A stretch of 57,666 nt of DNA, counting the filler, from Diploschistes diacapsis (taxonomy: Eukaryota): assembly GCA_023645945.1 (NCBI GenBank). It is 4 parts of 4 records of this genome, joined end to end, with 100 filler letters (N's around TTAATTAATTAA, not from the genome) between each part and the next. Parts side by side here need not be neighbours in the genome. Positions count along the whole stretch, not along the records: positions 1 to 8,542 come from JALAIB010001136.1; 3 more parts are not named here. One strand, written 5' to 3'. The position numbers were made by a program, and so were the translations under genes. The notes beneath the pieces were generated by a model, which made no database searches, was not told where the DNA came from, and worked only from the letters and a program-made list of their open reading frames with translations. Positions within the stretch are counted from its first letter, which is position 1; the number at the start of each line of letters is the position of its first letter. This document shows, piece after piece, positions 7,039 to 8,113 of the stretch.

Positions 7039-8113
7039 CTACGTTCGAGTCTTGTGTACATCTCGAGCATGTCTCTGCAGATGCATGATATGTTGTAGGA
7101 TCTCATCGCACGAGGGATGTGGACTGAGAATCGGCTTGTCCTTTGGTAGGAATTTGAGATGTTTTCGGTGGAAATGTTCCTTCAAGTCGCCGGTCTTGTA
7201 GAAAGATGTCTTACGTTTCGTTATCGGTAAGTCTTACTGGCCGAGGCAGAAAATGCACTGTGTTGGTTTACATTCTTAAAGAAAGTGAACTCGATTCCAC
7301 GAGGGGGTAACTTAATCCGCCAATGACGGCTCTTCTTTCGTCTTTACCTTAATCGCCGGTTGTTTCGTGGGATCATAGCACGACGGCTCTCTTAACGGCC
7401 CGCAAGGGATGTGAATGTGTTGATTGCTTTGCCTCTTCGAATGCACTCGTCCTTAAAAGAGGCGGTAGCGAAGGTGAAGAAAAAGTCAATAGTAATAAAC
7501 CGTTCTTTAAAGGCATACGCCCGTAGCGATTTTTAAACTTCTTGTTTTATATTAATTCCATTGAACTACCGCTTTATATCAAGCACCGGTTACTTTTTCT
7601 TATATTTACGTATAATCTCGTTCCGTATAATATTCTAAAACCGTCTTTTTAAATTATAATATTTATTCTTAAATATTTGATATTTCTCACGGATTAGAAA
7701 TCCTTTAACCCGACGAATCGATCCGTGTGTCTGTTTTATATGAACTTTAAGTTTACCTTTTTTTTAAACGAACGAGTTACGCGATGTATTTTAAAGTAAA
7801 ACGTTACGGCCGACGTGTGTTTATAATCCGGCTTATACCGCTAGTAGCTCGTATTATCGCCGTTTATAGTTCGAGAACTCGGTATGTCGCTTAAATATTT
7901 ATAATATTATACGTCGATTTATAGTTACGAATGAATACCCGCGGATCGGAATATTATAAGATTAAGATACGTTAAGATTCGCTAATCTGGCCGATTTTGT
8001 TATTAGATTTGATTTAGTTTAGTTAGGATTGAGGCCATCCATTGTTATAGTCGAGCGCCTCGGCGTTGCCCCATCTAGAAATGTAAGCTTCGGTCGGGAG
8101 CGTTATGCCGGTA
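7039..8113 (-). pseudogene. Starship captain: DUF3435 tyrosine recombinase, C-terminal half, RIP-mutated
   Basis: Manual translation of the minus strand: TGITLPTEAYISRWGNAEALD…ISES*RILIL*YSDPRVFIRNY…*ATYRVLEL*TAIIRATSGISRIINTRRP…YKKK*PVLDIKR*FNG…ECIRRGKAIN…CKPTQCIFCLG…GDLKEHFHRKH…HPSCDEILQHIMHLQRHARDVHKTRT*. This matches, from memory, the DUF3435 pattern (YxxR, QRNxILQH, RNY, MSRxIDxRRP, QPVxDIERQ, C-terminal CxxC/H-rich finger). Many stops fall where Gln is expected. Confidence 0.85.

Follow-up and report, generated by a model that had tools for sequence, protein, structure and literature searches.

A probable Starship captain gene in Diploschistes diacapsis, surviving as a truncated remnant with RIP-type damage

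Does an AT-rich, apparently non-coding stretch of the Diploschistes diacapsis genome hide the remains of a captain, the recombinase gene that stands first at the 5' end of Starship elements (preprint 10.1101/2021.12.13.472469; PMC11162782), and does the locus still hold such an element? An earlier note on this DNA had answered both questions in the affirmative, reading a RIP-destroyed DUF3435 tyrosine recombinase on the minus strand and placing there the head of a Starship running leftwards. The window, that is the whole stretch of DNA analysed (57,666 nucleotides, filler included, from assembly GCA_023645945.1), contains three identical 100-nt linkers at 8543-8642, 17182-17281 and 25798-25897, each composed of 44 N, TTAATTAATTAA and 44 N. 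The pieces that they delimit have lengths of at least 8,542, of 8,539, of 8,516 and of at least 31,769 bases. The piece to the right of the linker at 8543..8642 opens in the middle of the poly-Gln tract of an ORF for a Zn2Cys6 transcription factor, and the piece to its left ends in an AT-rich terminus. Given the sizes of the pieces, the linker with stops in all six frames and the cut gene, the linkers are taken to be contig joins. The pieces would then need not be neighbours in the genome, and the gene beyond the first linker need not adjoin the recombinase remnant. The contig that carries the remnant (1-8542) is about 8.5 kb long, at least 8,542 bases, and AT-rich at both ends, so that the size and cargo of an element cannot be judged from it. 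An Rfam scan and a tRNA search of the window each gave 0 matches, and neither a 5S nor a tRNA target site was seen.

The similarity of the stretch to DUF3435 recombinases is clear. When stops were read as X, two different minus frames matched the Pfam family PF11917, one with 42.4 bits (E 5.7e-11, profile positions 296-416 of 418) and the other with 31.9 bits (E 8.9e-8, profile positions 209-277). Both scores exceed the curated gathering score of 25.8 bits; the third minus frame gave no Pfam match. The closest relative, P0004, aligned by tblastn in three pieces (7965-7807, 7763-7368 and 7365-7045) with an E value of 1.4e-77, and a family HMM of 686 positions, constructed from 15 full-length homologues, matched with an E value of 8.4e-48. 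The six peptides quoted in the earlier note were all recovered on the minus strand where it had put them, five in the frame starting at 8559 and PVLDIKR, with a stop on either side, in the frame starting at 8558. The stop reversions that it proposed, giving QRxLILQH and QPVLDIxRQ, agree with QRNIILQH and QPVIDIQRQ in the homologue P0014. Its identification of a DUF3435 tyrosine-recombinase pseudogene with RIP-type damage is thus borne out by Pfam, tblastn and the family HMM, as well as by the direction of mutation described below.

The homologues are of two kinds. Hits longer than 553 aa number 15 and are all DUF3435 proteins (PF11917) of 593-812 aa; their named sources include Heterodermia, Teloschistes, Zasmidium, Lepidopterella, Coniosporium and several Pleosporales, and several of them bear the UniRef name 'C2H2-type domain-containing protein'. 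The other kind, 181-315 aa long, was found with the last 78 residues encoded by the remnant (7275-7042, minus strand), which matched 12 of 15 scored candidates, 11 of these 12 having PF11917. These shorter proteins are interpreted as the last-exon ORFs of relatives that are intact, since in full-length relatives an intron lies just upstream of where the shorter ones start. This 78-residue tail is C2H2-like in its Cys and His residues (CxxC...HxxxH and CPHPxC...HxxxxH), is 78% identical to its best match, P0002, and shows hardly any RIP damage (one stop, a TAA at 7236-7234). A PDB profile search returned no recombinase, and only weak zinc-finger matches with E values of 0.068 or more.

The pseudogene occupies 7042..8112 on the minus strand and encodes the C-terminal 340 or so residues, about residues 318-658 of the 658-aa P0014. 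By tblastn, residues 318-410 of P0014 correspond to 8112-7780, 438-550 to 7721-7383 and 581-658 to 7275-7042, with two frame changes, near 7800 and 7366. The natural stop codon, a TAG at 7039..7041 (minus strand), follows the protein end ...VHKTRT, as in homologues. A 17-residue insert at about 8046-7996, present in none of the homologues, is probably the last intron, retained in frame and about 51 nt long (7996..8046, minus strand). It stands at the last-intron position of related genes, six of the seven loci listed (all except L032) have an exon break near P0015 residues 362-365, and P0017 carries an unspliced insert at the same position. The DUF3435 domain of P0014 comprises residues 130-542, and the fragment comprises roughly the last half of this domain plus the tail. 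Catalytic sites (Arg, Lys, the His/Tyr-x-x-Arg site, His/Trp and the Tyr nucleophile) were placed by the invariant columns of family alignment A1 and by the alignment with P0014, and are named in part after recombinase motifs. The second catalytic Arg (YTFRR in the family, here YISRW) and the codon of the presumed Tyr nucleophile (NY) are retained, and the catalytic His of LQH (H354 of P0014) has become Tyr. The first Arg and the Lys are absent, and 12 stops and 2 frame changes interrupt the rest, so that the fragment offers no complete catalytic set in an open frame.

The missing half of the gene was sought on the far side of position 8112. Searches by tblastn with 15 full-length queries (E<=10) detected no N-terminal half (P0014 residues 1-317) in 8113-8542 or in the whole window, the single match being noise (E 6.3, opposite strand). 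The family HMM, run with filters off at E<=100 on six frames of every contig piece, detected nothing of its positions 1-346 in the window and matched positions 347-686 of 686 only, all other hits having negative scores. A peptide near 8197, PLFFFRH, resembles the PLFRR motif; it was not picked up by the family HMM and is put down to chance. In relatives the exon that contains the break-point is unbroken (P0015 residues 233-365, with residue 339 among them), so that the edge at 8112/8113 is a true break and not an exon boundary. Beyond it, and as far as the contig end, lies an AT-rich, RIP-like stretch (8113..8542) that has no recombinase similarity and no Pfam match of its own in any of six frames, its RIP indices being 1.04 (TpA/ApT) and 0.52 ((CpA+TpG)/(ApC+GpT)). 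In the lichen metagenome run X1, probably the run from which this DNA comes, single identical contigs cover 274-3599 and 3654-7982, and many short divergent contigs cover 8200-8542, where 20-28 of them overlie the variable sites 8209 and 8398-8419; runs X2 and X3 show a like pile-up of short contigs over 8200-8542. These pile-ups, whose summed depths are not copy numbers, are the grounds for calling the stretch a repeat. It would be a separate, dispersed repeat that abuts the truncation and probably caused it.

Whether the fragment derives from a captain was judged from its relatives. A set of 71 metagenome loci with at most 48% identity to P0004 was assembled with the gene on the plus strand and reduced to 39 non-redundant groups at 90% identity. 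Many of these loci hold complete genes of about 2.27 kb. When loci are compared in pairs, the common sequence sets in at a sharp point 5' of the start codon and continues for up to 12 kb, and the upstream flanks are unrelated. L004 and L005 share 8205 to 18282 of L004 at 98.7-99.6% identity with one 2.6-kb indel, L004 and L007 share 8192 to 15267 of L004 at 92%, L023 and L036 share 8186 to 20325 of L023 at 98.3%, and L020 and L048 share 8413 to 20936 of L020 at 99.98%. In L020/L048 the sharp point is about 300 bp away from the start codon, in the other pairs about 450-480 bp. The junctions of ten loci, when aligned, display unrelated AT-rich DNA followed by the conserved ...ATAAA..TTTA(A/G) and CGGGGGGACGG. 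With a sharp common 5' point and differing upstream flanks, the relatives follow the Starship plan: the related genes behave as captains, with a 5' element end just upstream and an element, more than 10 kb in length, that extends along the direction of the gene.

A quick maximum-likelihood tree of 51 last-exon sequences groups the window with P0002, P0003 and P0004 (SH-aLRT 100); the row of the window was flagged for its long branch and odd composition. This group is sister to a large lichen clade that unites related loci with Heterodermia and Teloschistes, and the relatives with demonstrated element ends belong to the sister group rather than to the subclade of the window itself. Dead copies are common in this recombinase family: of the 27 loci in the tree, 11 carry one or more last-exon stops, and in 7 there are eight or more. 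Taken with the homology of the fragment, these relatives make it very probable that 8112..7042 (minus strand) is what is left of an inactivated captain gene of the Starship type, coding for a DUF3435 tyrosine recombinase whose tail is C2H2-like. The earlier note was correct in its term captain, as far as the clade is concerned, and in the direction that it gave. What survives of the gene itself is a 3' half, beginning near residue 318 of 658.

Two other genes lie on the contig. An apparently intact gene for a Kelch-repeat membrane protein, recognised by Pfam, is located at 3789..5542 on the same strand as the remnant, between it and an NLR gene. Homologues of the Kelch gene, 77-81% alike, occur in other contigs, its best named match is from Thelotrema lepadinum (45%), and it may be either cargo or a host gene. 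The NLR gene (553..2391, plus strand) contains P-loop/NB-ARC-like, DUF7779 and TPR_10 domains, is convergent with the recombinase remnant, and ends 4.65 kb downstream of the recombinase stop codon. Its counterpart in locus L008, an NB-ARC/TPR_10 NLR, aligns with it across three frames (E 1e-79; 45% identity at 227 aligned positions), with W-stop-A opposite WQA of L008 and with 2-3 TPR units against ten. The NLR gene of the window therefore looks degenerate, as judged from these alignments, and it is possible that it was an accessory gene of a former element. Comparison of the contig with the 71 loci by blastn yielded matches confined to the NLR repeats and the zinc-finger tail.

The question then is whether a Starship surrounds the remnant. 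Quite possibly none does, and the captain fragment is a solitary one, left by deletion or rearrangement or carried by a repeat, with the Kelch and NLR genes being ordinary host genes nearby. Among the relatives, copies are often truncated where no contig end is responsible (e.g., L006, L014, L016/L018, L044-47 and L062-67). The authors of starfish removed 2,402 of 10,771 predicted recombinase genes by length as fragments or pseudogenes and expect many pseudogenes among the 10,771 (PMC11162782). Recombinase genes without recovered elements are also on record, table S8 of starfish giving 0 elements for Zasmidium (7 recombinase genes), Lepidopterella (10) and Periconia (8), with one genome each. 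At the locus itself, the composition of the flank is normal, the Kelch gene is intact and its family is widespread. The convergent NLR pattern common to the window and its relatives, however, argues against a solitary fragment.

The alternative is the reading of the earlier note carried to its end. The fragment would be the head of a Starship, perhaps a derelict one, running leftwards, and the Kelch gene, the NLR gene and whatever follows past the contig end would be its cargo or accessory genes. This can be entertained tentatively. The relatives are the first genes of elements that run along the gene direction, and five of their 39 non-redundant groups (L001, L008, L028, L032 and L049) have an NLR with NB-ARC/DUF7779 and TPR_10 on the opposite strand within 10 kb downstream. 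An NLR of the NB-ARC/TPR_10 type was found upstream in none of the 39 (250,023 bp upstream and 314,964 bp downstream were scanned). The layout of the window is the same, and degeneracy of the NLR is what a derelict element would lead one to expect. Pfam analysis of 121 downstream ORFs from 18 related loci identified NLR-type domains in three loci, besides kinase, HeLo, SIR2, ankyrin, deaminase, DDE transposase and other domains. L048 has a weaker TPR match upstream; that locus contains a second gene copy, inverted, and the match is on the downstream side of this copy. The locus can also be described as a 'Starship-like region' in the sense of Gluck-Thaler et al., in which DUF3435 is co-localised with DUF3723, FRE, PLP and/or NLR and TSDs are lacking (10.1101/2021.12.13.472469), as its DUF3435 gene is co-located with an NLR and has no TSDs.

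In the relatives the gene stands first and points into the element; in the window the contig ends 430 bp upstream of the fragment, and the 5' half of the gene is missing together with any element end. Several observations speak against a leftward element. No 5' end was found: the 5' terminal sequence known from the relatives does not occur in the window with 3 mismatches allowed, and a RIP-tolerant scan (C read as T, G as A) gave best scores at background. No direct or inverted repeats, TIR or second copy were found at the locus; the other end of an element would fall outside the contig. A homologue of the Kelch gene accompanies none of the 71 related genes, DUF3723, ferric reductase and patatin are found in none of the 121 downstream ORFs of the 18 loci, and composition indices reveal no RIP signature in the Kelch or NLR region. 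The difference of five against no NLR loci is weakly significant, and NLR genes are numerous in such fungi.

Empty sites were sought in contigs of three public runs (X1, X2 and X3) compared with 1-8542. No joint that removes the fragment was seen in them, contigs being able to show presence and not absence. Contigs of X2, assigned to 'organism A', instead cover most of 429-8005. They correspond to 555-3567 (104 differences and 56 gaps, about 95%), 4183-6077 (45 differences and 3 gaps, about 97%), 6727-7155 (a 431-nt contig, record 12, with 21 differences, about 95%), 7202-7672 (27 differences and 12 gaps, about 92%) and 7817-8005 (35 of 189 positions differing, about 81%). The contig over 6727-7155 spans the junction of the 3' end of the gene with the left flank, and since X2 holds the same junction, the remnant is older than the split of the two fungi. 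Two X2 joints (124>8125 and 124>8135) were considered as signs that 125-8124 had been inserted into a repeat, and this was rejected, their shorter sides being 27 and 24 letters long where the limit for a joint was 30, in metagenome contigs rich in repeats. The earlier claim of a Starship head is thus partly supported. The relatives do stand as first genes behind a sharp 5' boundary and their elements run along the gene, so that any element here would run leftwards, but an element end, a repeat and an empty site were not found at the locus.

A more specific proposal goes further, and is doubtful. According to it, the 8.5-kb contig would be the decayed front of a Starship from a lichen captain subclade (the window with P0002-4) that is characterised by the C2H2-like tail and by a habitual convergent NB-ARC/TPR NLR directly behind the captain. 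The sister clade, from lichen-type metagenomes, has its conserved 5' terminus (TTTA/CGGGGGGACGG) in AT-rich DNA. If the proposal is true, captain and NLR would make up a core module that recurs in one Starship lineage of Lecanoromycetes.

The damage to the gene is directional and is restricted to part of it. At 7501-8112 the TpA/ApT index is 1.16 and (CpA+TpG)/(ApC+GpT) is 0.44, compared with 0.73 and 1.26 at 1-7000 and 0.70 and 1.24 at 8643-17181; the indices are positive for RIP over 7501-8542 and negative in the flanks. Both indices of the damaged part lie beyond the usual RIP thresholds. Against P0002-4 the fragment has 12 in-frame stops in 321 aligned codons. At 7 of these stops all aligned homologues have Gln, at 10 at least one homologue does, and 2 face other residues. 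Comparison with five full-length homologues gives 11 stops in 296 codons, again with 7 opposite Gln throughout. In the alignment of 7401-8112 with P0004, reversal of C>T/G>A undoes 51 of 75 mismatches and the opposite change undoes 7, whereas among the 64 mismatches of 7042-7400 the corresponding numbers are 9 and 21. Each of the four transversion classes explains 10-14 mismatches over the whole P0004 alignment. Viewed in 120-nt bins, the C>T/G>A signal persists from 8001 down to about 7402 and is then gone, and the strongly marked part can be given as 7400..8112. The contexts of 56 inferred mutations are CpA (25), CpT (22), CpC (7) and CpG (2). With high TpA/ApT, low (CpA+TpG)/(ApC+GpT) and an excess of C>T/G>A relative to its relatives, the sequence indicates that the damage is RIP-like and ends inside the 3' part of the gene.

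Ordinary pseudogene drift in an AT-rich region, or deamination at methylated CpG, might be preferred on the ground that no duplicate was found in X1 and that the tail of the gene decayed without the RIP direction, but this is very improbable given the 51 to 7 excess in 7401-8112, the location of 47 of 56 sites in CpA and CpT and of only 2 in CpG, index values past both thresholds, stops that are mostly TAA or TAG opposite Gln, and the report of RIP in genomes of lichen fungi, in nested repeats (PMC13486527). RIP-type mutation is therefore retained as the source of the damage. Among the contigs of run X1 there is no second copy at least 80% alike over 7126-7980; duplication, the usual trigger of RIP, is accordingly no more than a possibility here, and a former duplicate changed by RIP may have escaped the comparison. 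Two causes fit the data: an earlier duplicate in which the shared sequence was limited to the conserved part of the gene, or leakage from the adjoining stretch 8113-8542, which is possible because that stretch is repeated. Leakage of RIP into unique flanks is a known effect.

The history of the locus may then have been as follows. The intact enzyme would have cut a large, cargo-bearing element at its ends and rejoined the DNA, and so would once have been active in transposition; its gene would have been the first just inside the 5' end of that element. The gene is broken within an exon at about codon 318, at the start of an unrelated AT-rich repeat. The surviving 3' half carries a His site changed to Tyr, besides the second catalytic Arg and the Tyr nucleophile, and continues through the C-terminal domain into the zinc-finger-like tail. 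RIP-type C-to-T mutation probably then ruined the reading frame from about 7400 to 8112, either when a second copy was once present or by leakage from the adjoining repeat. The copy is old and fixed, as a related genome shares the junction of tail and left flank.

The locus is an ordinary one, mutated captain remnants being common. Thousands of captains have been predicted, and this is a further inactivated one, from the lichen fungi, a group whose Starships and RIP were described in 2026. In practice it can serve as a marker, both for this locus and for a subclade of captains that combine a zinc-finger-like tail with an NLR behind the gene. The sharp common 5' ends of the related metagenome contigs are the more useful by-product for the cataloguing of lichen Starships. 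In a published survey of 554 lichen-associated genomes, 1,508 tyrR genes were counted and Starships of lichen fungi were reported (PMC13486527), and the tyrR supplements may well already contain the clade of the window.

Among known systems, Cryptons are likewise eukaryotic DNA elements moved by a tyrosine recombinase. They differ in that DUF3435 is the only profile matched in Pfam by the window fragment and that its relatives head elements of more than 10 kb; Starship recombinases form a clade separate from Cryptons (10.1101/2021.12.13.472469). Tangerine of Xanthoria parietina has in common with the locus a lichen-associated host, RIP in the genomes and an NLR among its accessory genes (PMC13486527). 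Its captain, which has 283 aa and lies 1,390 bp from the element end, is without active sites 1 and 2 (PMC13486527), the same part that is missing from the window fragment. That captain, however, is a short open gene and the copy in the window is broken by stops. Captains of the Tangerine family, as described, have no core-binding domain and occur only in Lecanoromycetes (PMC13486527), whereas the full-length relatives of the window have 130-170 residues before the DUF3435 domain and include Dothideomycetes, e.g., Zasmidium and Lepidopterella. These signs, indirect as they are, speak against membership of the window fragment in the Tangerine family.

The state of the gene has its counterpart in Wallaby, whose captain is riddled with stops, and in the 'derelict' Starships described as inactivated by RIP (PMC11162782), in which many premature stops arose in the same manner as in the window fragment. 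From Starship captains in general the fragment differs in being a 3' half for which element ends, size and cargo cannot be demonstrated, and its family adds a C2H2-like Cys/His tail, the words 'zinc finger' and 'C2H2' occurring 0 times in the available text of 10.1101/2021.12.13.472469. In other respects it resembles them: captains such as HhpA of Hephaestus belong to the same Pfam family, NLR genes are found in Starships as they are near the fragment, and the relatives of the window are likewise first genes, set back some 450 bp from a sharp 5' end whose upstream flank is AT-rich.

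Elements in ten of the metagenome loci carrying related DUF3435 genes (L004, L005, L007, L008, L013, L017, L023, L032, L034 and L036) share a crisp 5' terminus, beginning CGGGGGGACGG, which lies at about position 8186-8234 in nine loci and at about 71 in L013. This terminus is preceded by ATAAA..TTTA, and the AT-rich DNA there is otherwise unrelated between loci. The CGGGGGGACGG junction is a candidate for the terminus and target site of a Starship lineage of the lichen metagenome. L036 and L023 are 98.3% identical across 12 kb, whereas the last exon holds 10 stops in L036 and none in L023. 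L016 and L018 contain two partial gene copies arranged head to head.

On the contig of the recombinase remnant, the 114 nt at 3568-3681 are absent from contigs of the related fungus (run X2) and of run X3, with the joint at 3567>3682, and their summed contig depth, which does not equal copy number, is very high in these runs and in X1, the probable source run. This segment appears to be a small insertion of high copy number (MITE-like), polymorphic among related fungi. A GC-rich motif of 45 nt (GTGGCCGGA..ACGTTA) occurs at 80-124 and 224-268, within the AT-rich left contig end, and at 26021-26065 on another contig; its summed contig depth is extreme in X1, X2 and X3 alike, and loose AT-rich ends come after it. 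The motif possibly represents one end of a dispersed repeat.

The same 100-nt linker (44 N, TTAATTAATTAA, 44 N) occurs three times, at 8543-8642, 17182-17281 and 25798-25897, and divides the sequence into pieces whose lengths are, in order, 8542 or more, 8539, 8516, and 31769 or more bases. The whole window looks like contigs joined in series, perhaps in name order, so pieces across a linker need not be genomic neighbours. The Zn2Cys6 transcription-factor ORF (9406-11697) continues over 8643-9407 (minus strand) through a long poly-Gln/CAG tract and is truncated by the contig end; the assembly break falls in this repeat. Elsewhere, an 18-nt unit is repeated in 21 tandem copies at 50957-51530 inside a 1410-codon ORF (49273-53502) that matched no Pfam family.

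In the degenerate NLR gene, an intron-like 47 nt at 884-930 interrupts the P-loop (GLGGVG / KSQ). One X1 contig lacks exactly these nucleotides and differs further close by, and is for both reasons probably an intron-less paralogue. The gene seems to start with an Asn/Gly/Gln-rich exon of about 40 residues (MSNVADHQQASFINDGARVGVQAGQYNAYGDTNVQY...) at 553-675 (plus strand), followed by gtaagt and having no match in Pfam. Some fungal NLRs carry short amyloid signalling motifs at their N-termini, and this putative first exon recalls such motifs.
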